From contig CAZJWK010000002.1 of the NCBI GenBank assembly GCA_964549595.1, positions 31,823-94,747 on the forward strand: 62,925 nucleotides of DNA, read 5' to 3'. This document shows positions 6,101 through 37,687 of this stretch, piece after piece. Position numbers and translations under genes: made by a program. Every line of letters starts with the position of its first letter. Position 1 is the stretch's first letter. This stretch comes from an uncultured Sphingobacteriales bacterium (GTDB taxonomy: Bacteria > Bacteroidota > Bacteroidia > CAILMK01 > CAYYUA01). The notes under the pieces were generated by a model that was not told the origin of the DNA, did not search any database, and was given only the letters and a program-made list of their open reading frames with translations.

Positions 6101-8201
6101 ACATAATGAATCGATCCACCATTTTCGGCGATGGATTGTACGAATCACCCAATATACAGCCACTAAAGTAGAATATGGGATAGTTGGCTTTGTTTTGGGT
6201 ATAGGCCTCTGGCTCCCCAATATCCACTTCCAGTTTTTCAGCCGCACCATGCCCAAAATAATTTACCATTTGCAAACCATTGTTAAGCTTTTCTATAAAA
6301 TCCGCTTTAAGGGTTTTGTCGACCGGGAAGGACTTACTTTTCGAAAGGTTATAAATATTGGCCCCAAAATTGGTATCCCTTGCAATATCCGCGTAATTTC
6401 TCAAATAGGTTTTGATTCGTTCGTTAAGGCCTTTACCTTTACCCCCTGCTATATGCATAAGATTTTTTCGCCACTTGAGCCCTTCCTGCTTGGTTTTGAT
6501 TTGGTTTTCGTAAGCAGTAAGCTTATTAAAATAGTTGAGGGCTTTTTGATTGTCGGTGGCAGGTATGCGACCCACAGCTACCGGAATATTGGTAGTTTTT
6601 TGGTTAAATTTTTTAAGGTTGTAGACGAATAAATTATCTGAGGGAGGGTTCCCGATAGCAGGCACCAAATCTTCGTTAATAAGATTCTCTCTTCTTACGT
6701 GTTTGTTAGAGAGCCCATTTCCCAATAATAAGAGGTAATCCGGCAATTTGGATCTTTTAGCCAGGCTTTTCATAAAATACCGGATGGATAACGGATGATG
6801 GATACCGTAACTAAATTGGTTAAAAAGGTCTGAAACGTAAACTTTATTGACTGTATAATCCCTCGAGCGATAATTGGCATATTGTTGGGCTACTTTTTTT
6901 AGCTTTTTGTTGGTGATTATTAGATACTCGAGGTCTTCCGGGATTTTTTGATCGAAATTTTTCATTTCCACCTTAACCGGGTCCACTTTAGTCAATTTGT
7001 TTTCATCAGTAAGTAATAAATCTTGTTTCCCCACTATGGCAGGGATTAATGCCTTAAACTTATTTTGGGCAAGGGTTCCTTTCACAATGGCCTGATTGGC
7101 TTTATCAAAAATTAACGGTTTATTAAGATTAGAAGGATATCCGGGAAATTCAACCAGGTATTGGCCGTTGTTCTTTTTATTGAAGGCAAAGCTGAAAGGT
7201 AATGTCCCACCAAGCTCAAATGTTTTAGGGTATTTGAGTTTGATATAAAATATATAACACCGCCCGTAACCAATATTGCCAGGTGATTGAAATCGGGGAG
7301 TGCGTTTTATATTAAATTTAGTCTTTTTATTTTTTAAGGCTTTCTGATTTAGGGGAAATGTTTCTAACTTATATTGGAAAGATTTATGCCAAACGTTGTG
7401 TTTGACCTGCCCGCCATTTACACGGATTTCTGTTCGGTGATTATATCGCTCTCCTGAGTTGTCTTCGTAGAATCCGTTTTTTTCGGGGCTGAACAATAAT
7501 AATTCTGCCTTTGGTTGGGGGCCGGCTTGGTAGAAGTTTTCGGTATTGATAGAAAAGTTTCTGTCTATATAGGGTGTATATTCCACGGACCACCCTTCGC
7601 CTGTTGTGTAATGGGAATTGCCAAAAACACCAGCATTCTCAACATTGGAAAACCCGGATCGGTAATCCTTTTGGATTGTATAATTACGGTTGGTTAGGGT
7701 AAGGCCTGTTTTAATAAAGTACTTCTCGGGGTTGTAATTAGCATAATTGGTGTTTTTGATGGTTTTGTAACGCTTCCCATTCGCTCCTTGCTTCCAGGTC
7801 AGAAAATAAGATGCTGAGTCCGTGTAAAGGCTTGAAAATTTATGGGGTTGATCTTCAGGGTTTTTATAGAGTCCCGAGTCCAGGGCGCCGTCATTTTTTT
7901 CCCCCAAAAAAATGATATGATCACCCTGGTCAAAGCTGTTATCTCCACCTGTTTGAATACGGATGGGCTGCTCTTTGCCCATATTAAATAACTGAAAATT
8001 ATTGGGGTCAATGGTAGAAGGATTAATGCTGGTTTTTTGATCTATTGATTTAAAAGTGATTTTATAAACTCCTTTTTCGCCCACTTTAAATTTCAGGTAA
8101 GTCTGGTTTGGGTTAATCCATTCATTGGAAGGAACCTGGCTATCCGCAAAAAAAGGAAGGGATATTAGTAGGAGACTTGAAGTCACTAAAACCTTGTTCA
8201 T
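3171..8201 (-). CDS. C25 (gingipain/PorU-like) cysteine peptidase with Ig-like domains and T9SS-type C-terminal domain, 1676 aa
   Basis: Signal peptide; YLIIT, YLLLLG, SDNLF, AVGRIPA, NYFGHG (His), FSGC (Cys), LQGDPA; C-terminal YPNPF...WHGKD...GVYFYKV. Confidence 0.85.
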   Translation of the reverse strand: MNKVLVTSSLLLISLPFFADSQVPSNEWINPNQTYLKFKVGEKGVYKITFKSIDQKTSINPSTIDPNNFQLFNMGKEQPIRIQTGGDNSFDQGDHIIFLGEKNDGALDSGLYKNPEDQPHKFSSLYTDSASYFLTWKQGANGKRYKTIKNTNYANYNPEKYFIKTGLTLTNRNYTIQKDYRSGFSNVENAGVFGNSHYTTGEGWSVEYTPYIDRNFSINTENFYQAGPQPKAELLLFSPEKNGFYEDNSGERYNHRTEIRVNGGQVKHNVWHKSFQYKLETFPLNQKALKNKKTKFNIKRTPRFQSPGNIGYGRCYIFYIKLKYPKTFELGGTLPFSFAFNKKNNGQYLVEFPGYPSNLNKPLIFDKANQAIVKGTLAQNKFKALIPAIVGKQDLLLTDENKLTKVDPVKVEMKNFDQKIPEDLEYLIITNKKLKKVAQQYANYRSRDYTVNKVYVSDLFNQFSYGIHHPLSIRYFMKSLAKRSKLPDYLLLLGNGLSNKHVRRENLINEDLVPAIGNPPSDNLFVYNLKKFNQKTTNIPVAVGRIPATDNQKALNYFNKLTAYENQIKTKQEGLKWRKNLMHIAGGKGKGLNERIKTYLRNYADIARDTNFGANIYNLSKSKSFPVDKTLKADFIEKLNNGLQMVNYFGHGAAEKLEVDIGEPEAYTQNKANYPIFYFSGCILGDSYNPSPKMVDRFIMSKKGGIAWLAESHFSFPSFLQPYTRDFYKNLFQKKYGQNLGDILLGTINDFKHDGGSSRYHIQNENQIFQKTLQGDPALKLYSPKKPDYETNKAQIKFIPSNPNTSMDSFGLSIITSNLGRAVNDSFSIRVKQTFADFSSKVYDSFKIKAPYFSDTTVIYIKPNSKFKGKNKFKITLDPKKKIREISESNNTAIIEKFFPSKGVSPISPREFGIVPQKNVRLKAQANNLFLNQATYEFEIDTTPSFSSPYKKSSGPIKDGSFVGWNTRLLNKDSTVYFWRVRLKGNNGNNAWETSSFIYIKGSPSGWAQGNYYQILGSKTRDMTIDTGSRILNFNRQVRGRYKTNVRPQGITFRYENRGSQLLYYGGPKNGVLVLAIEPDQVERFYYESPYNKLSNVGDKDGHNKKYTGVFTFDWTKNNGEIDTAVVKDFLNHLDSIPNGYKILLSTRNEHQFENLWGEVYRKIENLGGDQIRQIKNGWPYILKGEKGEAIGSTSEKLPDTSISTQPSNQNLSTTLQMAPIQPFGQVTSTLIGPSKNWQEATLQTSPLESPSDDSASFSIIGVKKNGDEETLKTDLPTGSHSIEDINAEQYPFLKLKADFFDSTNVTPPKLANWIVLYEFVPEGTIQPNLAFNFYKDTLQQGDSLRFKTAYQNISQFAMDSVLWKHKILDDNRNQVFNVSKTHNPLDPKDSIIDGKKWPTNNLSGSYTIRSTVNPELDQPEQYLFNNVITRDFYVKKDKTDPAIDVTFNGRHIMDGAIVSPQPKIRIKAEDDNNYLLLNDTAQIKVLLKKPGGKEQKLDYQEDLDFYPAENGKQNKATVMYEPQKSLKNGDYELKIQAKDETGNRSGNRLYQKQFKVINESTITNFYPYPNPFTSRMRFVFTLTGSQVPDKINIQIMTIRGKVIKEITKDELGPLNIGVNKTNYVWHGKDEFGDPVGNGVYFYKVKAYLNGESIDHRKTAGDQFFEKNIGKLYLMR

Positions 8202-22632: not shown

Positions 22633-22707
22633 GGCCCGTTCGTCTAAAGGTTAGGACGCCAGGTTTTCAACCTGGAAATAGGGGTTCAATTCCCCTACGG
22701 GCTACCA
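22633..22707 (+). tRNA. tRNA-Glu (anticodon TTC), CCA encoded
   Basis: Acceptor GGCCCGT/ACGGGCT; anticodon arm CCAGG-TTTTCAA-CCTGG; T arm AGGGG-TTCAATT-CCCCT; ends ACCA. Confidence 0.97.
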
Positions 22708-23599: not shown

Positions 23600-24010
23600 T
23601 TAATCCAAAAAACGTCCTTGTAAATCCGGAGTTGGTACCATGCAAGATTCCCTTTTTCCGAACCACTGATACCGGTAACGGGCAATAACGTCATAAAATA
23701 AGTCTCTTATGAATGGAGGGATCAATATGAGAGGGAAAATTAATTTTAGGGATCCGCCTAATATTTTGGCAATCTTGAGTACTGCGGTTGATTTAACAAA
23801 AACTTCATCATTGTGAACCAAAATAAGGGAATCAATATTTTGTTGAATGGTTTCTGGAATCACTTCTTTGGCATAATGGGAATTTAATGGCGCCAATAAA
23901 AAGATTCCCCTGGGATCCTGGTTTATGATCCATTGAACGGCTTTATTGCAGAGGTTACAATAACCATCAAAGAAAATAACAGGTTGGTTATTTCGTTTTT
24001 TTATGTTCAT
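23600..24010 (-). CDS. DCC1/YuxK-family thiol-disulfide oxidoreductase
   Basis: FFDGYCNLC (DxxCxxC), RD.FYD.IA.YRY.WFG. Confidence 0.9.
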   Translation of the reverse strand: MNIKKRNNQPVIFFDGYCNLCNKAVQWIINQDPRGIFLLAPLNSHYAKEVIPETIQQNIDSLILVHNDEVFVKSTAVLKIAKILGGSLKLIFPLILIPPFIRDLFYDVIARYRYQWFGKRESCMVPTPDLQGRFLD

Positions 24011-24105: not shown

Positions 24106-26451
24106 ATGATTAAAAACCTGATCTTTTCCCTGATTTTAATGGGCTCCTTTTGTCCTTCCAATGCCCAACAAACTTATACATTAAGTGGTTACATCAAGGA
24201 TAAAGAGACCGGTGAAAACCTGAGTGATGCGAATATAAAGATTAAAAGTAGTGGGGAGGGTACCGTAAGTAACGATTACGGGTTTTATTCTATTAGCCTT
24301 CCAAAAGGGGATTATGAAGTATTATATTCTTATGTTGGTTATTCAGTGGAGAAGAAAACCATTACCCTCAATGAGGATAAGCGGTTGAATATTTCATTAG
24401 CCCCCAAAGCCATAAGTGGTGAAACCGTTGAAATAAAAGGTGAAAAACCGGATGCTAATGTTGAAAATGTAGAGATAGGTTCTGAATCTTTAGAGATCGA
24501 AAAGGTTGAGAAAATGCCCGCTTTAATGGGGGAAGTGGATATTTTGAAAACCCTTCAGCTTTTGCCGGGTGTTCAATCAGCCGGAGAAGGCAGTTCAGGA
24601 TTTCGTGTCAGAGGCGGTGGCCCCAATCAAAACCTGGTATTGCTGGATGAAGCAGTGGTTTACAATACCGGTCATTTGTTTGGTTTCTTTTCAGTGTTTA
24701 ATTCGGACGCCATCAATAATACCAAGCTTTTAAAAGGGGGAATACCCGCTAAATATGGTGGCCGGCTTTCTTCAGTGGTGGATGTTTCAATGAAGGAGGG
24801 TAACACCAAGGAATTCAAAGCAGAAGGGGGCGTAGGATTAATATCTTCTAAACTCACTATGGAGGGTCCTATTGATGAAGGGAATGGTTCTTTCATGGTT
24901 TCCGGTAGGCGAACGTATATTGATGTGTTAACCAAGCCTTTTATTCGGGGAACTGAGTTTGAAGGAAATTCCTACTATTTCTATGATTTGAATGCAAAAG
25001 CCAATTACCGTTTTTCGGATAAAGACCGGGTATTTCTAAGCGGCTATTTTGGCAGGGACGTTTTCGAATTCAATAGCAGTTCCAGCGATTTTGGGGTTAA
25101 TATGCCCTGGGGTAATGCCACGGCTACCCTTCGGTGGAATCATCTTTTTAGTGATAAATTATTTATGAATGCTTCTGCTGTCTATAATGAATACGATTTT
25201 GAGATAGGATTAAACCAGGAAAACTGGGATTTTAGTTTGTTTTCGGGGATTAAGGATTGGAATTTTAAAACGGATTTTACCTGGTATCCGGGCCCTAAAC
25301 ACACTGTAAAATTCGGATCTAATTATACTTATCATACTTTTATACCAAGTACGGCATCCGGTGAGTCCAGTGAAGGGGTTGAAATCCAGACAGACCAGGT
25401 AAAAAGGAAATTTGCCCATGAGGGGGCTTTATATATACAGGACGAATTCGAACTATCCGAAAAATGGCGGCTAAATGGAGGGTTGAGGTTTTCTGTTTTT
25501 CACCAGGTTGGTCCTTACAGATATTACAAAGATGGCGAGCTGATTAAAAAATATTCGGATGGGGAAGGGGTTAAAACGTACACAGGTTTTGAACCGAGAA
25601 TTAAAGCTCGCTACAAGATTAATGAGAAATCTTCCTTAAAAGCCTCATTTTCCCGGACTAAGCAATACATTCATTTGGTCTCGAATTCAGGAACCACGTT
25701 ACCTACTGATGTTTGGGTACCCAGCACCAAAAATGTAAAGCCGGAAAAAGCCAATCAATATTCAGGCGGGTATTTCCGTAATTTTAATGATAACATGTTC
25801 GAAACTTCCCTCCAGGTTTATTACAGGAAAATGGACAACCAAATAGAATATGGCAATGGCTATCAACCTGAGTTAGGCCGCCAGTTGGAAAGGGATTTCG
25901 TTTATGGGTTAGGAGAATCATTCGGGGCTGAACTCTATGTGAAGAAACGGAAAGGGGATTTTACCGGATGGATTAGTTACACCTTGTCTAAAACCACCCG
26001 CTTTTTTGAGGATTTAAGGACTGAAGTTTTCCCTTCCCAATACGACCGCAGGCATGATTTATCAGTGGTCGGTAATTATGAAATCGGTGACAGATGGACC
26101 ATAAGCACCACCTTTGTTTACGGTACCGGTCAGGCTACCACTATTCCTATCAGGCGAACATTAATCGAAGGCAGTGTACATAATTTCTATGGTAAAAGAA
26201 ATAATTATCGCCTGGAACCTTATCACCGGCTTGATCTATCTGTCACTTTAGGGCCCAAAAACCCTGAAGAGAAAAAATTTCACTCATCTTGGGTTTTTTC
26301 CGTTTACAATGTTTACAATAAGAAGAATCCTTTTTTTCTATACTTTGAAAATGAAGGAAACTTGCTGGCTGGTTCATTGAATACCCAGGCCAAGAAAGTC
26401 TCTTTGTTCCCTATATTGCCATCGATAAGGTGGAATTTCAAATTCAATTAA
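24106..26451 (+). CDS. TonB-dependent receptor with N-terminal carboxypeptidase-regulatory-like domain
   Basis: Signal peptide; SNDYGFYSI, GEVDILKTLQLLPGV, VRGG...N, YGGRLSSV, YHRLDLS; aromatic-alternating C-terminus. Confidence 0.9.
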   Translation: MIKNLIFSLILMGSFCPSNAQQTYTLSGYIKDKETGENLSDANIKIKSSGEGTVSNDYGFYSISLPKGDYEVLYSYVGYSVEKKTITLNEDKRLNISLAPKAISGETVEIKGEKPDANVENVEIGSESLEIEKVEKMPALMGEVDILKTLQLLPGVQSAGEGSSGFRVRGGGPNQNLVLLDEAVVYNTGHLFGFFSVFNSDAINNTKLLKGGIPAKYGGRLSSVVDVSMKEGNTKEFKAEGGVGLISSKLTMEGPIDEGNGSFMVSGRRTYIDVLTKPFIRGTEFEGNSYYFYDLNAKANYRFSDKDRVFLSGYFGRDVFEFNSSSSDFGVNMPWGNATATLRWNHLFSDKLFMNASAVYNEYDFEIGLNQENWDFSLFSGIKDWNFKTDFTWYPGPKHTVKFGSNYTYHTFIPSTASGESSEGVEIQTDQVKRKFAHEGALYIQDEFELSEKWRLNGGLRFSVFHQVGPYRYYKDGELIKKYSDGEGVKTYTGFEPRIKARYKINEKSSLKASFSRTKQYIHLVSNSGTTLPTDVWVPSTKNVKPEKANQYSGGYFRNFNDNMFETSLQVYYRKMDNQIEYGNGYQPELGRQLERDFVYGLGESFGAELYVKKRKGDFTGWISYTLSKTTRFFEDLRTEVFPSQYDRRHDLSVVGNYEIGDRWTISTTFVYGTGQATTIPIRRTLIEGSVHNFYGKRNNYRLEPYHRLDLSVTLGPKNPEEKKFHSSWVFSVYNVYNKKNPFFLYFENEGNLLAGSLNTQAKKVSLFPILPSIRWNFKFN

Positions 26452-26467
26452 AAGACTGCCCTGTGCT

Positions 26468-27433
26468 ATGAAAGTCAATTTGAAACCTAAAGCATTGTTT
26501 AAATTTCCTGTTTTTGCCTTTGCTTTTATTTTTATCGCCATTGGTTGCGAGGAAGATGTAACGGTTGATTTACCAAAAGGAGATGAGCATTTGGTCATTG
26601 AAAGCCATATTGAAAACGGGGCCCCTCCCTATGCCATTCTTACAAGGGATCAGGCTTATTTTACCCAAATAAACCAGGAAACGTTAAATGATTTGTTCAT
26701 CCGGAATGTGGATACATTTTGGATAACAGATTATCAAGATACCATGGCCCTGCAAAAAATCAACCCAAGGGATTTGCCTCCAGACCTGGAAAATGAATTT
26801 CTGGATGCGTTCAGGGTTGGTGAGTCGGAATTTAGGAGAGGCTTGGATTTAGTAATTTATTTGCCCGATTTTTCCAGTGGTAATGTCATTAGAGGATCAG
26901 AAGGGGGAGAATATAAGCTATATGTAAAAACTCCCAATCATGAAGCTTCTGCCACAACCACCATAACAGAAAGGGCGAAACTGGATTCTGTGTATTATAA
27001 GCCGGATGGCCCCGAAAACAAATATGCACAGGTTTTTATTAAGGTAGATGATCCAAAGGGTAAACCTTCATTTTATCGCTACCTCACCAAGAGAAATTCA
27101 GAACCCTTTTACGCCCCTTTATCCGGCTCTGTAGCCACTGATGAGGCCGTTGACGGAACCGTATTCAATTTCCCAATAAACAGGGCCTATCCCAGGACAG
27201 GAACAACCCCTTCCAATGAAACCTTTGGCCTTTTCAAAAAAGGGGATACGGTAGTGGTGAAATTTTGTGCCCTTGACCGGGAGCACTACAAATTTTGGAG
27301 TACTTTGGAGGAAGACCTTAGAAATCAGGGCAATCCTTTTGGCTCCCCAACAATAATACAAAATAATATTAATGGAGGTTTAGGGATTTTTGGCGGATAT
27401 TCCTGTGATTACGATACGGTGGTAATACGCTAA
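26468..27433 (+). CDS. DUF4249-family lipoprotein (TonB receptor partner)
   Basis: Lipobox AIGC followed by EEDV; C-terminal NINGGLGIFGGY; directly after the receptor. Confidence 0.75.
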   Translation: MKVNLKPKALFKFPVFAFAFIFIAIGCEEDVTVDLPKGDEHLVIESHIENGAPPYAILTRDQAYFTQINQETLNDLFIRNVDTFWITDYQDTMALQKINPRDLPPDLENEFLDAFRVGESEFRRGLDLVIYLPDFSSGNVIRGSEGGEYKLYVKTPNHEASATTTITERAKLDSVYYKPDGPENKYAQVFIKVDDPKGKPSFYRYLTKRNSEPFYAPLSGSVATDEAVDGTVFNFPINRAYPRTGTTPSNETFGLFKKGDTVVVKFCALDREHYKFWSTLEEDLRNQGNPFGSPTIIQNNINGGLGIFGGYSCDYDTVVIR

Positions 27434-28136: not shown

Positions 28137-30548
28137 ATGCTAAACCGGTTGTTTTTACCCTTTTTAGCCTTCCTTTTAGGCATTTTGGGGACCTTAGACG
28201 CTCAAATCCTCAAACCCGTTGAATGGAATTATGAAGTGGAAAAGAAGGGGCCAAAATTGTATGAGCTCCGTTTAATTGCAAATATTGACTCCGGTTGGCA
28301 TATTTACGGCCAGGAAATTGACGGGGAAGGGCCTATTCCCACTTCATTTAAATTTCAAAAGGAAGAAAATTTCAAACTCATTGGAAAAGTAAAGCCCCTC
28401 ACCAAAGGTAAATTTAAGCATGACAAAATGTACGGGGCTAAATTTACCACATTCAGTGGTAAAACCATTTTTGCTCAAAAGGTAGAAATAAAAGACGAAG
28501 GGCAAGTTGACCGTATTAGCGGTGAGCTTACTTTCATGACCTGTAAAGAGGACAAATGCTTAAGCCCTACCACCAAGAATTTTACCTTCAATTTAAATGA
28601 AGCACAGAGAAATGAAGAAAAAGGTGCTAACACCAATAAATCGGGAGGGGGTTGGCAAAGCGTGTCCAAGGATGAAGGGTCTGAGCCTTCCAAAACGGAA
28701 GATCAAAAAAACCAGATACTGGATCCGGTGAATTGGAACTATAAATTGGAACATGTTCAAGACAATGTCTTTGAATTAAGTTTGAAAGCAAATATTGATA
28801 AAGGTTGGCGTATCTATGGCAGGGATTTAGATGAGGGTGGCCCTGAAGCCACGAGTTTTGATTTTAAAGAAGATGATCAGGATTTAACCATTAAGGGCAA
28901 AACGGAACCTGTTACCGAGCCTGTTACTAAATATGACTCGGTTTTTCAGATGGAACTTACCTATTTTGAGGAGTCAGCCCATTTTGCTCAAAAGATTAAA
29001 TTATTGGATAAAGTCAAAAGTTTTGACGCCAAAGTCAGATTCATGGCTTGTGACGATTCCCGCTGCTTACCGCCAAAGAACAAAACCGTGGAAATAACCT
29101 TGAGCGAAGACCAAATCGCTGAGGTTAAGCAACTTGAATCTGCCGATAAGGGTAGTGATCAAAAAACGATGTGGGGCATATTCATAGCCGGCTTTGCTGG
29201 TGGCTTATTGGCTTTTTTGACGCCTTGTGTTTTTCCGATGGTTCCACTCACTGTAAGCTTTTTTACGAAGAGCAGCGGGAATAAAAGCAAAGGCGTTTTG
29301 AATGCCATAGTTTATGGCTTGTCCATTATCCTTATATATGTGTTATTGGGTTTCTTGGTCACCAAATTATTTGGCTCCAGTGCTTTGAATCAATTAGCCA
29401 GTAATATTTGGTTCAACCTGGCTTTCTTTTTTATATTCATTCTTTTTGCCATTTCATTTTTCGGGGCATTTGAAATCACATTGCCCAGCTCGTGGGTAAA
29501 CCGATCGGACCGGGTTGCCGATAGAGGAGGGTTTGTAGGCATATTTTTCATGGCTTTCACCTTAGGCTTGGTCTCATTTTCCTGCACAGGCCCTATCATT
29601 GGTACTTTGTTGGTACAAGCTGCTGTTGTTGGGAGTAATACAGGACCCCTTATTGGGATGTTTGGCTTTTCTCTTGCGTTAGCCCTTCCTTTTACCATTT
29701 TTGCTGCTTTTCCGGGATGGCTTAACTCAATGCCCAAATCCGGGGGTTGGCTAAACACCGTTAAGGTGGTTTTAGGCTTTCTGGAATTGGGGTTAGCACT
29801 GAAGTTTCTCTCTAATGTCGACATGGCTTATAGTTGGGGTATATTACCACGTGAGGTTTTCCTGGGTGTTTGGATTCTCATAGGACTTGGGTTGATAGCC
29901 TATTTAGTTGGACTGATAAAATTCCCGCATGATAGTCCGGGTAAAAAATTAACGTTTCCCAGACTCGGCTTATCACTTGTTGTATTACTTTTCGTAGGGT
30001 ATTTGGCCAGAGGTATGGGTGGTCAGCCATTGCAACTATTAAGCGGTTTCCCACCTCCCACATTTTATTCAGTTTGGGAAAGTAAAAATTGTCCCCAGGA
30101 TTTTAACTGCTTTCACGATTATGATAAAGGTTTGGCGTATGCAAAAAAAGTTAACAAGCCCATAATGCTGGATTTTACGGGCTGGTCGTGTGTGAATTGC
30201 CGGAAGATGGAGGAGAATGTATGGGTTGATCCGGAAATTAAAAAACTTATTGGCGATAGGTATGTGCTGGTTTCCCTTTATGTGGATGAAAAAGAAAAAC
30301 TACCGGAAAGTGAGCGGTACGTTTCAGATTTTAGTGGAAAGAAAATAAATACGGTGGGTAAGAAATGGAGCGATTTTCAGGCCAGTAGATTTAAGGCCAA
30401 TTCCCAACCCTACTACGTTTTACTGAATACTGAAGAACAAAAGTTAATTGAGCCGAAAGGCTATACGCCTAATCCCGAGGAATACGAAAAATTCCTGAAA
30501 AAAGGCTTAAAAGAATTCAAAGAACAAAATAAGCAGGCCTTTCGGTAG
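28137..30548 (+). CDS. dsbD: thiol:disulfide interchange protein DsbD with two N-terminal domains
   Basis: Signal peptide from MLNRLF; two repeats PV.W...GW.IY...C-X4-CL.P; TM TPCVFP and SCTGP; C-terminal thioredoxin WSCVNC. Confidence 0.9.
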   Translation: MLNRLFLPFLAFLLGILGTLDAQILKPVEWNYEVEKKGPKLYELRLIANIDSGWHIYGQEIDGEGPIPTSFKFQKEENFKLIGKVKPLTKGKFKHDKMYGAKFTTFSGKTIFAQKVEIKDEGQVDRISGELTFMTCKEDKCLSPTTKNFTFNLNEAQRNEEKGANTNKSGGGWQSVSKDEGSEPSKTEDQKNQILDPVNWNYKLEHVQDNVFELSLKANIDKGWRIYGRDLDEGGPEATSFDFKEDDQDLTIKGKTEPVTEPVTKYDSVFQMELTYFEESAHFAQKIKLLDKVKSFDAKVRFMACDDSRCLPPKNKTVEITLSEDQIAEVKQLESADKGSDQKTMWGIFIAGFAGGLLAFLTPCVFPMVPLTVSFFTKSSGNKSKGVLNAIVYGLSIILIYVLLGFLVTKLFGSSALNQLASNIWFNLAFFFIFILFAISFFGAFEITLPSSWVNRSDRVADRGGFVGIFFMAFTLGLVSFSCTGPIIGTLLVQAAVVGSNTGPLIGMFGFSLALALPFTIFAAFPGWLNSMPKSGGWLNTVKVVLGFLELGLALKFLSNVDMAYSWGILPREVFLGVWILIGLGLIAYLVGLIKFPHDSPGKKLTFPRLGLSLVVLLFVGYLARGMGGQPLQLLSGFPPPTFYSVWESKNCPQDFNCFHDYDKGLAYAKKVNKPIMLDFTGWSCVNCRKMEENVWVDPEIKKLIGDRYVLVSLYVDEKEKLPESERYVSDFSGKKINTVGKKWSDFQASRFKANSQPYYVLLNTEEQKLIEPKGYTPNPEEYEKFLKKGLKEFKEQNKQAFR

Positions 30549-30561
30549 AAAACTGTAATTT

Positions 30562-31146
30562 ATGGAAATAGCCCGTAAACACCTTGAAGAGGCCCAGGAT
30601 TTGCTTAATTGGTTCCTGGCCGAGGAAAGTAACATTCAAACCATTGAGGAAGGCGGCAAACTTTTGGCTCAAGCTTTAAAAAGCGGGAATAAAGTACTAT
30701 CCTGTGGAAACGGGGGATCGATGAGTGATTCCATGCATTTTGCTGAGGAATTAGTGGGTAAATTCCGGGATGAACGAAAAGCATTACCGGCAATTGCACT
30801 GGGTGCTGATCCCTCCTATACCAGTTGTATTTCCAATGATTTTGGTTATGAATACGCCTTTTCCAGGGGAGTAGAAGCTTTTGGCCAGGAAGGGGATGTG
30901 TTAATGGGCATTTCCACAAGTGGTAATTCGGGTAATGTACTTAAAGCCGTAGATGCAGCCAGAGAAAAGGGCATGCATGTCATTGGATTAACCGGAAAGG
31001 ATGGAGGTAAAATGGCCGGAAAAAGTGATGTGGAAATCCGTGTTCCTCATTTTGGTTATGCAGACCGCATTCAGGAAATCCACATCAAGGTCATTCACGT
31101 TTTTATAGATTTTGTGGAAAAGGAACTTGGGCTTTCCCAATCTTAG
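30562..31146 (+). CDS. gmhA: D-sedoheptulose 7-phosphate isomerase
   Basis: CGNGGS, NDFGY, ISTSGNS, RIQEIH. Confidence 0.95.
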
Positions 31147-31182
31147 TAATCTGAATAAAGGCCTTTTTAGTCGAACACTGGC

Positions 31183-31794
31183 CTAATCAAAGTTTTTTTC
31201 ACCTGCTTTTATAGCCACTCCCAGCTTGTTTTCCTCCGGCGGAACCGGGCAAGCATAATTTTTATTATAAGCGCAGTAGGGGTTGTAAGCTTTGTTAAAA
31301 TCTACTAAAGTGGTATCTCCTCCCCCTAAAGAATCAATGTCCAGGTAGCGTCCGCCACCATAGGTACTGTGGCCATTGGTATGATCATAAAAAGGAATAA
31401 AGAGTTGATTGGCAGAGCCTTTATCGTTATCCAGGTTTTTGTAAGCATTGAGGGATAGGTTTTTGTCCTTCAATTTAAATTGCAGGCTGGCATATTGGGT
31501 ATAGGTTTTTTCTTCACCGTTGGTATATGCCATTGATATGGTATCCTGTTGGTCTGGCTTTTTAATGGTCGCTGATACACGATACTGCTTCTTAACCGGA
31601 AAGTAATCCAGGCTACGAAAACTCTTCTGTTGCTTTTCTGTTAGCGGCGAATTGTCCGAATATTTAAAGTGCTTATCTTTTTCAAAGCGTTGCCGCTTTA
31701 TCTTGCTTTCGTAGTCTATTTTGTTTTTTGAGCATCCGATAAAGGTTAGAGGAATGGCTAAAAAAATCCACAGAATAATCTTTTTGTCGGGCAT
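31183..31794 (-). CDS. DUF1684-family lipoprotein
   Basis: Lipobox FIGC; LFIPF.D.TNG..TYGGGRY, DFNKAYNPYCAYN..Y.CP.PP.EN. Confidence 0.9.
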   Translation of the reverse strand: MPDKKIILWIFLAIPLTFIGCSKNKIDYESKIKRQRFEKDKHFKYSDNSPLTEKQQKSFRSLDYFPVKKQYRVSATIKKPDQQDTISMAYTNGEEKTYTQYASLQFKLKDKNLSLNAYKNLDNDKGSANQLFIPFYDHTNGHSTYGGGRYLDIDSLGGGDTTLVDFNKAYNPYCAYNKNYACPVPPEENKLGVAIKAGEKNFD

Positions 31795-31798
31795 TGTT

Positions 31799-32692
31799 TT
31801 AAATGGGTATTTTTTGGGTTTGCAAAACCGTTAATTTAGGCTGGCTCTTGTGCACAAAGGCTACCAAATTCAAATTGTTCAAGTCCCATTTTTCCTCAAT
31901 AGAAAAGCGGAATTCTTTGTAAATGACTTGCCTTTTCTCGGGATTATCAAAAATTTTGGTGCCTTTGTAAGGGGTAACAATTTTTCGCAAAAGATGATTA
32001 AGCACGTAATCAGATTTTTTTCCTTGCGGGGTTGCTTGTTTATCCACAATACTATCTTGAGTCACAGCCAGGGTCAGGTTTAATGGATGATCAACATTTT
32101 CATTGAGAAAAACTTTAACACCTGCCGTAACCTGATTCTTTTCCTTCTCCAGTTTTTTAATGAGGTAAATGTTGGCCTTGGTTTGCTGGTTTAATCGGGC
32201 AGGGGCTTTGCCTTTCCATTTTTGATAATCCAAAATGGGACCATCCTCACCGGAAAATTGATACCGATCAATCATACCGGCAGGCTGGGCCGGTTTATCG
32301 AACATTTCATAAAGGGACTGCCCTTTTTTAATTCGATAGTTTTCCTTGCTGCCGGGGTAGGGCCTCGAAAAATTCAGATTGCAGTGAATACCCAAAGCAA
32401 CGACCCGGTCTCCGTATTCTTTTTGAAGGGCTTTAATTTTTTCGGTGGCTTTAGGACAATTGTTACAACGAACACCGGTAAAATCTTCAATCAAAATATT
32501 TTTGGTTTGCCGGTTCGTATCTGAATCCGCATAATAGGAAGTGTCTTTTAGATTTCCGGTTAAAGGAGGTTCCAGCTGAATATTCGGCCCCTCTTCCTCA
32601 CAAGAGGCTAATCCCAATATCAGTACCAGTGATACCAAGCCATGTGGCAATTGGAGCTTATCTAAAATCTTTTTTATGCGATCCCTTTTCAT
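31799..32692 (-). CDS. Omp28-related outer-membrane lipoprotein with thioredoxin-like CxxC
   Basis: Start MKRDRIKK (ATG 32692); lipobox LASC-EEEG; LIEDFTGVRCNNCP; NHLLR; LVAFV. Confidence 0.85.
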   Translation of the reverse strand: MKRDRIKKILDKLQLPHGLVSLVLILGLASCEEEGPNIQLEPPLTGNLKDTSYYADSDTNRQTKNILIEDFTGVRCNNCPKATEKIKALQKEYGDRVVALGIHCNLNFSRPYPGSKENYRIKKGQSLYEMFDKPAQPAGMIDRYQFSGEDGPILDYQKWKGKAPARLNQQTKANIYLIKKLEKEKNQVTAGVKVFLNENVDHPLNLTLAVTQDSIVDKQATPQGKKSDYVLNHLLRKIVTPYKGTKIFDNPEKRQVIYKEFRFSIEEKWDLNNLNLVAFVHKSQPKLTVLQTQKIPI

Positions 32693-32712
32693 AAGCAAGC
32701 CATTATTTTTTA

Positions 32713-34383
32713 TTAGAAATTGGTGGTTACACCGATTTGAGCCCCACTGAAAGCTGGCTCTACCCGGCAGACACCGCCGGTACAAACAATACCTTGCACC
32801 CTTTTCACGTAACCCACACTAAAGCGGGTTTGGTTTTTGGTATAAGTGCCCAGAATGCTGTAATAATGAACCCAGGATTGATCGGATAGCAAATTGCCGT
32901 TTCTCCTTGGTTCCGTATTGACCATATCGGTTACTGAAAGGGTATAATGGGGCGCCACACTAAATTCCAATAGCCCAAACAGGAAATCCCCTTTATCTTG
33001 CTCGGTGGATAAATATTGAAATTCGGCCCTTAGGGATTTTTTTCTGGTAAATTTATAGGTCACCTCAGTATAAGGCGTAACAGTCCGTACCATATTGGCA
33101 CTTGGTTTACCCTGGTAAACAGCCCGGTCATAGTTAACATTTTGAATACCGATGATTGTTTTTAAATTACGACTCCACCGCCTTTGGTAATTAAAATTGA
33201 TTTCCTTGTAAATCTTTTTACCTGGGTTATAAATATCCCCTTCATTGGTTATGCGTTGGAAACCCACAACAGGTGCGGAAATAAGCCTTTTATCCTCACC
33301 ATCTTTAATGTAAGAAAGGTTTAAATTAAAAGTGTTGTTCAGGTCAGGTGAATATTTAACATCACCTTGGTAGGCTTCTTCTCCGAAAGAAAGGGTTTGT
33401 GGCGAATATCGACCTGTTAACCTTCGATTGTGTTGCTTAGCTATGGGGGGCATAAAGTTGATTCTTCCTCTGAATTGCTCCGCATAAGGTGTTGTTTTCA
33501 GCAAGTAGGTGCGGTTTTTCCGGTATTGGAAAGAGATACCCAGACCGGGAAGGGTGTAGTCAATCGAGCTATAGAGGGCATAGCCATCCCGGTTAATGAA
33601 TTTATCCCCGGCTTTATTCCGAATGGCTTCCTGGGATTTATCAGCATATTCCAGGTACCAGCTAAGGTTTTTGTAGTTTAATTGGTTATAAATACTATAA
33701 GCGTAAACATTGTACTTGGGAATAAAACGGTCGTCAAAATTCTGGTAATTCCGGATTTCATTGGCTATATTGTTCATGGTCTGATCATCCAATGTCCTGT
33801 TTACGAAAGCAGCCCCCGGAAAGAGAGATAAGGTGTCGGAAATAAAAATATCCTTTTCCACATTCACCCCTTTTAATATGGGATTGTAGGCACTAAAACG
33901 CTGCTTCTGTTTGCCCGTAAAGCCCGTTACTCTGAATTGATCTGAAAAATCGTATTTTAGCCTCACCCCTTGCACAGCGTTGTCAATGCCAAGAAGCCGG
34001 TCCTCATAAGCCCTGAAAATCATACCGCTTCCAAATTGCTCGTAAAAATGACCACCGGTTATCGTAAGGTTGTTGATCTCTTTGCTCAGTGAATAATAGC
34101 CTAAGCCTTGTTTGCTGTAGGCTTCCTGGGGATCAAAGAGCGGGGAATTATGAAATGCATCAAAACGGGCTGAAACCTTGAAACCCTTGAGCCGGTAGTT
34201 CAGGTAAAACCATCCTTTAGCCGAAGAAAGCTCCTCTTTGTAGTGGGTGGTATTGGTACCGATCTTCGGATCGGAATCGTAAAAATTTCCCTTAAGCTGT
34301 AAATCCCCTGAAAGCCGTCCCTGGGAAAAAAGCCAGACCGGTATCAGTAGATAAAAGCCAAAAAGTAAAAGAATAACCCGCAT
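32713..34383 (-). CDS. DUF6029-family predicted outer-membrane beta-barrel
   Basis: Signal peptide; G.FYEQFGSG...RAYEDR.LGIDN; C-terminal G..CTGGVCR..PAF.G...TTNF; terminal Phe. Confidence 0.8.
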   Translation of the reverse strand: MRVILLLFGFYLLIPVWLFSQGRLSGDLQLKGNFYDSDPKIGTNTTHYKEELSSAKGWFYLNYRLKGFKVSARFDAFHNSPLFDPQEAYSKQGLGYYSLSKEINNLTITGGHFYEQFGSGMIFRAYEDRLLGIDNAVQGVRLKYDFSDQFRVTGFTGKQKQRFSAYNPILKGVNVEKDIFISDTLSLFPGAAFVNRTLDDQTMNNIANEIRNYQNFDDRFIPKYNVYAYSIYNQLNYKNLSWYLEYADKSQEAIRNKAGDKFINRDGYALYSSIDYTLPGLGISFQYRKNRTYLLKTTPYAEQFRGRINFMPPIAKQHNRRLTGRYSPQTLSFGEEAYQGDVKYSPDLNNTFNLNLSYIKDGEDKRLISAPVVGFQRITNEGDIYNPGKKIYKEINFNYQRRWSRNLKTIIGIQNVNYDRAVYQGKPSANMVRTVTPYTEVTYKFTRKKSLRAEFQYLSTEQDKGDFLFGLLEFSVAPHYTLSVTDMVNTEPRRNGNLLSDQSWVHYYSILGTYTKNQTRFSVGYVKRVQGIVCTGGVCRVEPAFSGAQIGVTTNF

Positions 34384-34462
34384 AAAAGATATTGTTAAAA
34401 GTCTTTAAACAAGCTAAGTTAGCGGAGTAATCACATTTAGAAAAATTTTTAAAAGGAAATTT

Positions 34463-35167
34463 TTAGAGAATGCCCTCGTCAGCAAAACTATAGTAACCGT
34501 TATCGGCAAATATGAGGTGGTCTAACACCTTAATGTCCAAAGTTTCCCCTGCTTCTTTGAGTTTTTGGGTTAAGTTTTTATCCTCAGCGCTGGGTTTTTT
34601 GTTGCCGGATGGATGGTTATGACATAGGATGATGGATGAGGCCAGATTTTCCAAAGCCGTTTTAAAGATGATTTTGGGATCCACTACGGTTCCTGAAACC
34701 CCACCTTTACTAATGTTATGTTGGCCTATCACTTTGTTGGCCCGGTCGAGCAAAATCAGGTAAAATTGTTCATGGGATAAATCGGCGAAATAAGGGTAGA
34801 TATGTTCGTAAACTTTATCGCTGCTGTCGACTTTGGGCTTTTCGGCGGGGTCTGCCTTTTTCCGTCTTCTTCCAAGCTCCAGGGCAGCTGCCACTGTAAT
34901 GGCCTTGGCATCTCCAACGCCGGGATTCTCAGTAAGTTGGTTGATGGAAAATTTGCCTAATTGGTTTAGGTTGTTACCGGCACTTTTGAGCATATTTTTG
35001 GCTACATCCACTGCTGATTGTTTCTTAGTGCCGGACCCTAATAAAATCGCTATTAACTCCGCATTGGTAAGTGCCTGATAACCCTTGAGCATCATTTTTT
35101 CCCGTGGGCGATCTTCTTCGGACCAGCCCTTGATACCCAAGTAATTGTTATCAGCGGGGTCACTCAC
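34463..35167 (-). CDS. radC: RadC/JAB-domain protein
   Basis: DRPREK, ELIAILLGSG, AALELGRR, HNHPSG..PS..D, LDH; GTG start. Confidence 0.93.
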   Translation of the reverse strand: MSDPADNNYLGIKGWSEEDRPREKMMLKGYQALTNAELIAILLGSGTKKQSAVDVAKNMLKSAGNNLNQLGKFSINQLTENPGVGDAKAITVAAALELGRRRKKADPAEKPKVDSSDKVYEHIYPYFADLSHEQFYLILLDRANKVIGQHNISKGGVSGTVVDPKIIFKTALENLASSIILCHNHPSGNKKPSAEDKNLTQKLKEAGETLDIKVLDHLIFADNGYYSFADEGIL

Positions 35168-35178
35168 CGGGATTTATT

Positions 35179-35433
35179 TTAAGAGAGGTTGTTAACGTGT
35201 CTCCTGAGCTTGGATTTCAGGTTATTGGCTTTGTTCTTGTGAATCATGTTTCTCCGGGCTAAACGATCCAACCGCGAAGCAACGGTGTTATACCATTTTT
35301 CAGCCTCTTTTTTGTCCGTCATCAAGCGAAGCTTTTTAACGGAATTACGGGCTGTTTTTTTATAATAATGATTATTGGCTTTACGCTTTACGTTCTGTCT
35401 TAACCGCTTTTCTGCTGATGGATAATTTGGCAT
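35179..35433 (-). CDS. rpsT: 30S ribosomal protein S20
   Basis: SAEKRLRQ, IHKNKA..LKSKL; very basic, 84 aa. Confidence 0.95.
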   Translation of the reverse strand: MPNYPSAEKRLRQNVKRKANNHYYKKTARNSVKKLRLMTDKKEAEKWYNTVASRLDRLARRNMIHKNKANNLKSKLRRHVNNLS

Positions 35434-35464
35434 ATCACTCTTCTCCTTTTCATGTTTAAAGGTG

Positions 35465-35472
35465 CAAAATTA
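35465..35472 (-). promoter_or_regulatory. -7 promoter element for rpsT-radC
   Basis: TAATTTTG(CA) about 31 nt before rpsT ATG. Confidence 0.65.
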
Positions 35473-35929
35473 GGGTTTTCTCATTAAATTAAGAAATGGG
35501 TTGAAGAGTGGATGGTTGGGGGATTGTTTGTCGTGGGTTCCTTATGTAGGGTGGCTTGCAATAAAGGTCGCTTGAGGTTGACTGTTGAAAGATTGACCAA
35601 AGTGATTAGCCGGTTTTTACCATTCATTTGCTAACCATTTTTTATGGTACGTTTTTGTCTTTTTCAATCAGAAGATCAAAAATATGGATTTTTGCCGGGG
35701 TTCGCTTGTTCAGGAATAACTACTGATTAATTAGGCCTTATGGATGAAAAATTGCAAGGGTCAAGCCATTAATAGGATAGAAAATAATAAGTTTTTGGCT
35801 TAGATCAGTGGCCATGAAAATCATTGCGCATTGTCAAAGGCTTTTTACCATGGCTTTGACCGACATGCCTGGAAACCAGGAACCATTAAGAGGGAATAAC
35901 CGGGATCTGCCTTGAAGGGATTTTAAAGC

Positions 35930-36457
35930 TTAATTACTTTTTTTCTCTTTATCATCCTTATTCAGTGCTTTTAGTTTTTCCTCCAGCTCATACTCATCGC
36001 CTTCTTTATAGCCGGAATGTTTGTAAACGATCTTACCTTCTTTATTGACGACCATTGAATAGGGTATTGCGGAAAAGTTTAGTTCCCTTTTTGTTTTTTT
36101 ATTGACATCCAGTAAAACATCAAACTGCCAGCGTTCTCCTTTGACAAATGAGCTGACTTTTCTGGTACTACGGGAGTTATCAAGTGAGATGGCTACTAAT
36201 TCCGCATCATACTTTTCTTTCCAATCCGGCATAAGGTATTTTAGGTTATTGAGCTCTTTCTTACAAGGCTTGCACCACGTTGCCCAGAAAGAAAAAATGG
36301 TGATTTTTCCGTTATCGGCATATTTTTCCAAATTGACTTGCTCACCCTCAACGGTTTTTAGGTCAATGGAGGGCACCTTCATCTTACCACCTACCTGCTG
36401 GGCGGAAAGACCCAGTGTGAATAGCATTAAGCCAATAAAAACGTAGGATAATTTCAT
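35930..36457 (-). CDS. TlpA-family periplasmic disulfide reductase
   Basis: Signal peptide MKLSYVF..; SFWATWCKPC; cis-Pro loop AIP. Confidence 0.9.
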   Translation of the reverse strand: MKLSYVFIGLMLFTLGLSAQQVGGKMKVPSIDLKTVEGEQVNLEKYADNGKITIFSFWATWCKPCKKELNNLKYLMPDWKEKYDAELVAISLDNSRSTRKVSSFVKGERWQFDVLLDVNKKTKRELNFSAIPYSMVVNKEGKIVYKHSGYKEGDEYELEEKLKALNKDDKEKKSN

Positions 36458-36506
36458 TGTTTTCGTTTTTGAATTCAAGCTCAAATTAAATAAAATGCTA
36501 AAAGGT

Positions 36507-36535
36507 AAAAAAGCCCGCCAAATGACGGGCTTTTT
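36507..36535 (-). terminator. intrinsic terminator after hppD
   Basis: Minus strand: GCCCGTC-ATTT-GGCGGGC-T6. Confidence 0.85.
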
Positions 36536-36565
36536 CTGCTTATGACATTTATCAACTTTTCCCTG

Positions 36566-37687
36566 TTAAAGGTTACCGCGTTTTTGTTGCTCCCTTTCTA
36601 TGGCCTCGAAAAGGGCTTTAAAGTTGCCTTTACCAAAGGATTTGGCCCCTTTACGCTGAATAACCTCGAAGAAAAGGGTTGGCCTTGGTTCGACAGGCAG
36701 GGTAAAGATTTGCAACATGTAGCCTTCATCGTCCCGGTCTACGAGAATGCCCTCTTCTCTCAGGTCTTGAACCCTTTCGTCAATGTTCCCTACCCGGTCA
36801 AGCAAATCATCGTAATAGGTATCGGGTACGCGAATGAATTCAATACCCCTTTCTTTCATGGCTCTTACGGTGCTTAAAATATCATCAGTTGCCAGTGCGA
36901 TGTGTTGGACGCCGGGGCCATTGTTGTATTCCAGGAATTCCTCGATCTGGGATTTTTTCTTGCCTTCGGCCGGTTCGTTAATGGGGAACTTCACTTTGCC
37001 GTCCCCATTTGTCATCACCTTACTCATTAGGGCGGAGTATTCAGTAGAAATGTCCTGGTCGTCAAAGGAAAGTAAGTTGGTAAAGCCCATGACATCGGCA
37101 TAAAAATCCACCCATTTGTCCATGTGGCCTAATGGCACGTTGCCAACACAATGGTCTACGTGTTTGAAGCCAATTTCGGTAGGTTTGTAAACCGTATTCC
37201 ATTCCTTAAAACCCGGCATGAAAGGCCCGTTATACTGATTACGCTCAACGAAAACATGAACCACATCCCCGTAAGTATGGATACCCGAAAGTTTTACTTT
37301 ACCATTTTCGTCATCCAGGGTTTTGGGTTCCATATATTTTTCACCCCCGCGCTTGGTGGTTTCGTTGAAAGAATATTCCGCATCATCGACCCAAAGCCCG
37401 TAAGCTTTTACTGCATCACCGTGTTGACGAATAAACTCTGAAATTTGACTATCCTTTTCCAAAGGAGAGGTTAATATGAGGGTCACATTGCCTTGCTTAA
37501 CCACGTATGAAACACGGTCATGGACGCCGGTTTCGGGGCCCGAATAGGCGTAGGGCTGAAATCCAAACGCGGTTTGGTAAAAATGAGCGGCTTGTTTGGA
37601 ATTGCTCACATAGAATTCAATGTAATCTGTTCCGTTTATGGGAAGGAAATCTACTTCCTGACCTTCTTTTGCTACTAACTGTTCCAT
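36566..37687 (-). CDS. hppD: 4-hydroxyphenylpyruvate dioxygenase
   Basis: DHCVGNV, SQIEEFL, QHIAL, LQIFT, FFEVIQR, FGKGNFKALFEAIEREQ. Confidence 0.97.
   Translation of the reverse strand: MEQLVAKEGQEVDFLPINGTDYIEFYVSNSKQAAHFYQTAFGFQPYAYSGPETGVHDRVSYVVKQGNVTLILTSPLEKDSQISEFIRQHGDAVKAYGLWVDDAEYSFNETTKRGGEKYMEPKTLDDENGKVKLSGIHTYGDVVHVFVERNQYNGPFMPGFKEWNTVYKPTEIGFKHVDHCVGNVPLGHMDKWVDFYADVMGFTNLLSFDDQDISTEYSALMSKVMTNGDGKVKFPINEPAEGKKKSQIEEFLEYNNGPGVQHIALATDDILSTVRAMKERGIEFIRVPDTYYDDLLDRVGNIDERVQDLREEGILVDRDDEGYMLQIFTLPVEPRPTLFFEVIQRKGAKSFGKGNFKALFEAIEREQQKRGNL

Follow-up and report, generated by a model that had tools for sequence, protein, structure and literature searches.

The 62,925-nucleotide window analysed here (the whole stretch of DNA, from contig CAZJWK010000002.1 of an uncultured Sphingobacteriales bacterium) encodes, on its minus strand, a TlpA-type periplasmic reductase, a large outer-membrane beta-barrel of the DUF6029 family, and a thioredoxin-fold lipoprotein of the Omp28/HBP35 type. 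Comparison with other DUF6029 loci shows that TlpA, DUF6029 and Omp28 form a functional unit conserved across Bacteroidota, of which the window holds a split copy. Thiol chemistry at the outer membrane is most likely the theme of this module, which may bring such chemistry to the cell surface by an undescribed route. Open reading frames (ORFs) were called and searched with Pfam and NCBIfam profiles; coordinates are positions within the window. The module comprises the following features:

35930-36457, minus strand: TlpA/ResA-like periplasmic thiol:disulfide oxidoreductase with a signal peptide; WCKPC at 36263-36277
32713-34383, minus strand: DUF6029 outer-membrane beta-barrel of 556 amino acids with a signal peptide (PF19494, 414.4 bits against a cut-off of 27, residues 19-556)
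32758-32793, minus strand: cysteine hairpin of the barrel, GIVCTGGVCRVE, residues 531-542 of the translation
31799-32692, minus strand: Omp28/HBP35-like thioredoxin-fold lipoprotein (PF11551, 86 bits against a cut-off of 34.9)

The order of transcription on the minus strand is TlpA, rpsT, radC, DUF6029, Omp28, DUF1684, with 20 nucleotides between the DUF6029 stop and the Omp28 start. A first-pass annotation of the same sequence had proposed a disulfide relay leading from DsbD through TlpA and the DUF6029 barrel to Omp28 at the cell surface. The genes and motifs from which that proposal was built (DsbD, TlpA with WCKPC, DUF6029, Omp28 with CNNCP, and a DCC-family protein) were all found in place.

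Conservation of the TlpA, DUF6029 and Omp28 genes

Searches for DUF6029 returned 807 cluster representatives at E-values up to 0.001 and at least 592 loci in species-representative genomes. In a phylum sample of 301 genomes, DUF6029 was present in 79, of which 27 belong to a single family, denoted f29, with a divergent form of the protein. The ORFs encoded within 8 kilobases (kb) on either side of 58 other barrels were searched with the window proteins and then with profile hidden Markov models (HMMs). The loci outside f29, with the window counted in, make a set of 52 from many families. By profile HMMs, 45 of these loci have a TlpA-type ORF no more than 2 kb from the barrel, and 46 have an Omp28-type ORF at such a distance; both are present in 39 and one or more in 52/52, so that the linkage of the three genes proposed by the first-pass annotation holds well beyond the window. 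A same-strand Omp28 match directly downstream of the barrel was found in 37 of the 52 loci, and a 38th (genome G077) by phmmer only. The genome-level distribution agrees: Omp28 scores above its Pfam cut-off in 49 genomes, all 49 of which are among the 52 non-f29 genomes with DUF6029, and in none of the 222 DUF6029-negative genomes, eight of which have sub-threshold matches. When the neighbouring ORFs of 37 loci were clustered, no further family recurred in more than seven.

The f29 loci carry a variant of this arrangement. In all seven sampled (L084-L090), TlpA-type ORFs flank the barrel on both sides by profile HMMs: a TlpA gene is followed by a barrel of 503-517 amino acids with C-T-S-G-I-C-Y-E and then by two TlpA-type ORFs (for example, L085:7459-10839), with no Omp28 domain found within 8 kb of the barrel. 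In L085, the one f29 locus examined in this respect, the downstream pair consists of a lipoprotein Redoxin and a Redoxin with a type IX secretion system (T9SS) sorting tail, both with CPHC.

The window TlpA has the WCxPC motif and a signal peptide and matches Pfam AhpC-TSA (76 bits) and Redoxin (61 bits). It falls under the cut-offs of the rhizobial TlpA equivalog NF047696 (45.7 against 230) and of ResA, NF002854 (78.4 against 170); its best solved relative is 2m72 (E 6e-34), with ResA and StoA at about 1e-16 to 1e-17. Despite its distance of 1.5 kb from the barrel, this protein is the orthologue of the module TlpAs, because all 42 of those taken from other genomes match it best in tblastn (42/42), with about twice the bits of the next paralogue.

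The remaining features of the window considered here are:

28137-30548, plus strand: DsbD, with two DsbD_N stretches, DsbD_TM and a C-terminal thioredoxin domain (CVNC) by Pfam
30562-31146, plus strand: GmhA
31183-31794, minus strand: DUF1684 lipoprotein (PF07920, 158.7 bits), 4 nucleotides downstream of Omp28
34463-35167, minus strand: radC (Pfam RadC and UPF0758_N)
35179-35433, minus strand: rpsT (S20)
23600-24010, minus strand: DCC1-like protein (Pfam)
3171-8201, minus strand: C25 peptidase of 1676 amino acids (NF052324, 672.8 bits against a cut-off of 450)

Among the 80 nearest loci, from Chitinophagales and Saprospiraceae metagenome-assembled genomes with 3-kb flanks, TlpA was found in 50, Omp28 in 48, and DUF1684 downstream in 11. 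Genomes with the three module genes side by side number roughly 90. The exact order seen in the window (TlpA, S20, RadC, barrel, Omp28, DUF1684) occurs in 1 of the 80; S20 and RadC adjoin the barrel in two, and RadC alone in one more. Homologues of DCC, GmhA, S20 and RadC were found beside none of the barrels in the 58 sampled loci. Thus, rpsT and radC are housekeeping insertions between TlpA and the barrel, outside the module.

The 496-nucleotide gap between TlpA and rpsT (35434-35929) contains no ORF of 80 amino acids or more and no Rfam match, and presumably serves as promoter region for the five genes from rpsT to DUF1684. A scan of positions 31000-36800 with a sigma-70 consensus, ill-suited to Bacteroidota, returned 11 sites resembling promoters, where shuffles predict 11.0, and 8 resembling terminators, where they predict 7.6. 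These chance-level scans, together with the 1.5 kb and the two genes that separate TlpA from the barrel, could be taken to mean that the genes are coincidental neighbours without a shared function. However, adjacency in 52/52 loci and in 7/7 f29 loci, combined with near-perfect co-occurrence, leaves coincidence with a negligible probability.

As for DsbD, which the first-pass annotation had counted into the unit, the window and one of the 58 other loci (L034) are the only ones to have it no more than 8 kb from the barrel; of the 80 nearest loci, a single one has it inside the 3-kb flanks. Of the four genes whose co-occurrence that annotation wished to see examined in Bacteroidota, tlpA, DUF6029 and omp28 are kept together and dsbD is not a conserved neighbour; the DCC protein, named there as lying nearby, has no homologue in the 58 other loci and is not part of the unit. 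The assignment of DsbD follows from its Pfam domains, with NCBIfam PRK00293 below the cut-off (169 against 330). Its cysteines comprise C364 and C483 in the membrane, C685 and C688 in the thioredoxin domain, and two N-domain C-x4-C pairs, CKEDKC and CDDSRC, one in each of the tandem DsbD_N domains. This is the only DsbD-like tblastn match in the 97%-complete assembly and therefore the general electron supplier of periplasmic TlpA-type proteins, not a dedicated part of the module; in the window, DsbD is a chance neighbour.

Several further observations concern the surroundings of the module. In four loci without an adjacent TlpA (L037, L040, L048 and L052), an ORF of about 216 amino acids lies directly upstream of the barrel. 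The one in L040 (9635-10282) was considered as a TPR_Slam protein and rejected: it is a TPR protein, and the match (E 3.4e-4, below the cut-off) is a generic TPR cross-match. Between the DCC gene and DsbD in the window, a TonB-dependent receptor with CarboxypepD_reg is followed by a DUF4249 protein (24106-27433, plus strand), forming a separate outer-membrane pair. The sole Rfam match in the whole window is a tRNA at 22633-22704. The stretch is contained in four DNA sequencing runs, all from a single sediment study, with no RNA run listed.

The cysteine hairpin of the DUF6029 barrel

The DUF6029 protein of the window contains exactly two cysteines and ends in Phe (F556). As the first-pass annotation had pointed out, the cysteines form a C-x4-C pair with the spacing of the DsbD_N pairs, and the conservation on which its argument depended is borne out: C534, G537 and C539 are invariant in 98/98 full-length homologues, at a mean column identity of 24%. 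The only other invariant residues in this alignment are five glycines; R540, P543, G531, G536 and F556 are each at least 90% conserved. In distant DUF6029 forms, the pair persists as C-[TS]-[NS]-G-[IV]-C. Besides the hairpin, the alignment consensus is conserved in loops at about residues 105-145 and 305-345.

In the AlphaFold2 (AF2) model of the barrel (pLDDT 92.9, pTM 0.88), DSSP delineates approximately 24 membrane strands, which are joined by short turns and long loops in alternation. The C-terminal strands span residues 519-528, 531-535, 538-542 and 545-555, the first and the last of these being the last two membrane strands. Between them, C534 and C539 face each other across a G-G turn in a 12-residue hairpin (531-535, G-G, 538-542). 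Barrels of this kind have both termini in the periplasm, and the hairpin therefore corresponds, by strand order, to the last extracellular loop. By topology, the cysteine hairpin is thus predicted to be extracellular, beside the seam with strand 1. Since strand 1 stands at the very beginning of the mature protein, a plug domain is absent.

This placement bears directly on the relay of the first-pass annotation, in which electrons would pass from DsbD to TlpA, then to the C-x4-C pair of the barrel, which would act as a membrane-crossing carrier and counterpart of DsbD, and finally to surface Omp28. Gene linkage, the invariant cysteine pairs and the C-x4-C spacing common to the barrel and both DsbD_N domains speak for such a relay, as does the conservation of R540 and P543 in at least 90% of the homologues, beyond the needs of a simple staple. 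However, the pair is located in the last extracellular loop by strand order and not in the membrane plane, the barrel is rigid and has no obvious alternating-access motion, a single pair at the rim cannot on its own span the way to the periplasm, and DsbD is not a conserved neighbour. The notion of a DsbD-like carrier conflicts with this topology, and we regard the literal relay as unlikely.

The best structural matches of the barrel are the ushers FimD (Z 19.3) and PapC (Z 18.6), with a Foldseek E-value of 1e-10; the many weaker matches include MtrB (Z 13.7), Wzi (Z 13.6), TonB-dependent transporters and substrate channels. A sequence search of the barrel against solved structures gave nothing relevant (best E 0.54, a viral penton).

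The many channels and transporters among these matches raise the question of whether the barrel instead takes up a nutrient or some oxidised substance (haem or iron, for instance), with Omp28 as a SusD- or HmuY-like binder that forms a lid at the surface and TlpA reducing or protecting components in the periplasm. In accord with such a role, a study of HBP35 reports that this protein binds haemin through a region that matches the Ig-like (immunoglobulin-like) domain of Omp28 and is needed under haemin limitation (PMC2907840), and a 2026 preprint suggests that T9SS and lipoprotein thioredoxins of Muribaculaceae have a role related to iron (PMC13404670). The invariant residues of the module are redox motifs, however, the f29 partners are plain Redoxins without an Ig-like domain, and TlpA-family proteins act on protein disulfides. 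Furthermore, the barrel has neither a TonB box nor a plug, the mature protein beginning at strand 1. An uptake channel with a surface lid is accordingly not a likely interpretation.

The Omp28 lipoprotein and probable routes to the cell surface

Fold matches to 5y1a and 2r2c identify Omp28 as a thioredoxin-like CxxC domain joined to an Ig-like domain, preceded by a lipobox. The AF2 model (pLDDT 87) has HBP35 (5y1a) as its best match (E 1.2e-12, TMq 0.61), followed by 2r2c, and the best sequence match among solved structures is again 5y1a (E 1e-4), over the CxxC region. The protein passes the Pfam cut-off of PF11551 and falls just under that of NCBIfam NF033782 (143.4 against 150). The lipobox is LASC, with the lipidated Cys31 at 32600-32602 followed by EEEG, and CNNCP lies at 32453-32467. 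C31, C76, N78, C79 and P80 are invariant in 50/50 Omp28 relatives; judging by the two alignments, the cysteine motifs of the barrel and of Omp28 are not a product of chance. An invariant cysteine pair is a feature of all three module proteins, TlpA included.

Lipoprotein export signals defined in Bacteroidota are K-(D/E)2, Q-A-(D/E)2, SDDDD and SDDFE, that is, a polar residue or Lys followed by at least two D/E at positions +2 to +6 (PMC5080379). The acidic residues after the Omp28 lipobox resemble this signal without being equal to it. In Omp28 partners elsewhere, the lipidated Cys is followed mostly by D/E at +2 and about +5 (C-D-[VI]-[VI]-[DE]). Of the surface thioredoxin that the first-pass annotation saw in Omp28, the HBP35-like fold and the acidic stretch after the lipobox Cys are thus retained.

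The partners encoded beside the barrel include proteins of another class. In L065 and L067, Omp28-domain CxxC proteins with Por_Secre_tail adjoin TlpA and the barrel. With lipoprotein partners in some loci and T9SS-tailed partners in others, thioredoxin-fold partners would therefore reach the surface by two independent routes, and the use of two unrelated routes argues that the role of the barrel is not merely their export.

The genome of the window also encodes, on contig C44 (L003:1207-3324, minus strand), a protein of 706 amino acids that has a signal peptide, CARDB, a T9SS sorting tail and a domain resembling Omp28/HBP35 (CGYC) and that, by its domain composition, is predicted to be a second thioredoxin-like protein of this genome and to be secreted to the surface. 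An in-frame TGA in the Omp28 match of genome G101 (L070) is, by its coordinates, the stop codon of the ORF itself; no selenocysteine partner was found in the sampled loci, G101 alone having been worked through among the Omp28 matches with an in-frame TGA.

A complex of the barrel (residues 21-556) with Omp28 (residues 31-297) was predicted in three runs with three controls. The score was 0.35 (runs 0.35, 0.38 and 0.27), against 0.00 for the best of the three controls, and is rated as weak support. In the benchmark of this score, the mark was reached by 116 of 157 solved complexes and by 2 of 215 mismatched pairs; those that did so at 0.60 or less comprise only 18 of the 157 solved complexes, together with both of these mismatches. 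Between runs, contacts agree to at least 64%, with a partner pLDDT of at least 85. Structure prediction thus answered the proposal of the first-pass annotation in part: for DUF6029 alone, the cysteine hairpin is placed at the extracellular end by strand order, and for DUF6029 with Omp28 the result is weak (0.35).

These data also bear on a third possibility, that the disulfide is structural and the module is a device for assembly or display, with the barrel anchoring or exporting Omp28 in the manner of Slam or LptD-LptE and TlpA keeping cysteines reduced in transit. The hairpin, which adjoins the C-terminal strand where the barrel has its seam, would be suitably placed for such a device, LptDE appears among the fold matches (rank 25), and the weak complex score for the barrel and Omp28 also fits. 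However, T9SS-tailed partners need no barrel for export, yet stay linked to it, and a dedicated reductase would be unusual for a structural staple. The invariance of the lipoprotein CxxC and the NCBIfam family name 'Omp28-related selenoprotein' (NF045500) suggest catalysis. We consider an assembly device quite improbable.

The T9SS is represented in the window by other genes. The C25 protein, which the first-pass annotation had cast as a secreted protease and a substrate of the relay, matches NF052324 and is a putative T9SS sortase of the PorU2 type rather than a secreted protease resembling gingipains. At 57461-59014, the plus strand encodes a T9SS response regulator of the PorX type, with receiver and PglZ domains (NF052313, 813.8 bits against a cut-off of 300). 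Among the 75 sampled genomes of the window's class, the group to which this comparison is confined because the PorP/SprF model scarcely reaches beyond it, PorP/SprF was detected in 74 and DUF6029 in 17, and the module is therefore not a core T9SS component.

The DUF1684 lipoprotein encoded downstream of Omp28 has a cysteine pair, C-x7-C-P-x-P-P, kept in 10 full-length copies. The pair was considered as a module-specific feature and ruled out: it is a family trait, because it is present in the solved relative 2lnu. DUF1684 is a lineage-specific companion of the module.

Proposed mechanism and comparison with known systems

We propose that a soluble periplasmic TlpA-type reductase, kept reduced by the single DsbD of the genome, would act with the approximately 24-stranded DUF6029 barrel, and the barrel in turn with the Omp28/HBP35-type thioredoxin-fold lipoprotein, which is probably surface-exposed. 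In the resulting barrel-lipoprotein complex, the wide barrel would open cysteine pairs at or beyond the outer membrane, namely, C-x-N-C of the lipoprotein and the stapled extracellular hairpin of the barrel, to the periplasmic reductase, and thioredoxin-like proteins at the cell surface would thereby become recyclable. The parts would be in physical contact, and electrons would flow along this path from the periplasm outward. That a barrel-lipoprotein complex is serviced from the periplasm by TlpA is the interpretation we tentatively favour, at somewhat less than an even chance.

Several observations weigh against this proposal. With the hairpin placed at the extracellular end, the lumen would be the sole way for TlpA to get to it from the distant periplasm, and, stapled beside the C-terminal strand, the hairpin could be purely structural. 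The complex prediction for the barrel and Omp28 was weak and returned no interface. The EEEG of the window Omp28 has no polar residue or Lys ahead of the acidic pair. Finally, within 2 kb of the barrel, a TlpA-type gene is absent in 7/52 loci and an Omp28-type gene in 6/52, and in the window two housekeeping genes and 1.5 kb stand between TlpA and the barrel.

Surface thioredoxins such as HBP35 show activity in vitro and are located beyond the outer membrane, and we know of no electron source for them. A dedicated periplasmic reductase and a barrel with an invariant cysteine pair are kept beside proteins of this kind across a phylum that, by published locus tags, takes in the gum pathogen Porphyromonas gingivalis, which makes the question of the electron source directly testable.

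No description of the module was found in the literature, the papers on Omp28 and thioredoxins being, by title and abstract, on other subjects. A term search of the preprint on Muribaculaceae thioredoxins found neither Omp28 nor TlpA (PMC13404670). The only mention of DUF6029 that was found is a remark on HHpred similarity between Wzi-like matches and DUF6029, where the Wzi barrel is given as having 18 strands (PMC9603273). Wzi ranks only 16th among the fold matches of the barrel (Z 13.6), and no polysaccharide-export genes recur beside DUF6029 in the clustered loci. The ushers FimD and PapC (3ohn, 2vqi) are the best structural matches and are consistent with 24 strands; however, DUF6029 lacks the plug and the N- and C-terminal usher domains, sequence identity is 9-11%, and the module includes no chaperone or pilin genes.

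In P. gingivalis, the consecutive tags PG2175-PG2174-PG2173-PG2172 correspond to a thioredoxin-domain protein, an uncharacterised vesicle protein, Omp28 (2r2c) and PorA. The window differs in having no PorA-like neighbour and in the insertion of rpsT and radC. PG2174 and PG2175 were found in the literature in proteome lists only, with nothing functional published for the locus, and a term search of the PorA paper found no mention of an operon, Omp28 or a disulfide (PMC12152298). HBP35 of P. gingivalis is a T9SS cargo on the cell surface that reduces insulin faster than Escherichia coli thioredoxin and loses this activity when its two cysteines are changed (PMC2907840). HBP35 (5y1a) and the window Omp28 share the succession of a thioredoxin-like CxxC domain and an Ig-like domain, whereas the former is a T9SS cargo with a C-terminal sorting domain and the latter is a lipoprotein with CNNC. 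To our knowledge, HBP35 has not been described as having a barrel or a TlpA as partner.

The module further resembles the pathways in which DsbD or CcdA supplies TlpA, ResA or CcmG: DsbD and a signal-peptide-bearing WCxPC protein of the TlpA family are both encoded in the window, and the electron supply is presumably the same. The known targets of these pathways are periplasmic (apocytochrome c, ScoI and CoxB), whereas the conserved partners here are an outer-membrane barrel and a lipoprotein.

In outline, the porin-cytochrome conduit MtrCAB of Shewanella (6r2q) is a parallel, since there, too, the genes for a redox protein in the periplasm, a large barrel in the outer membrane and a redox lipoprotein at the surface are found together. 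The fold match of the barrel to MtrB (Z 13.7, root-mean-square deviation 5.1, 354 aligned residues) is no better than those to many barrels, there is no sequence relationship, and the haems of MtrCAB contrast with the cysteine pairs found here; TlpA, DUF6029 and Omp28 matched no cytochrome families in Pfam or NCBIfam. The module could be a thiol-based counterpart of such porin-cytochrome conduits, in which DsbD-fed TlpA would dock into the barrel and reducing equivalents would pass via the hairpin, the lipoprotein CxxC or both to surface Omp28 and to T9SS-delivered HBP35-like proteins, an extension that we consider doubtful. Should thiol exchange indeed carry reducing power across the outer membrane, DUF6029 would gain its first function, and the result would be a new kind of envelope pathway, parallel in outline to the haem-based conduits.

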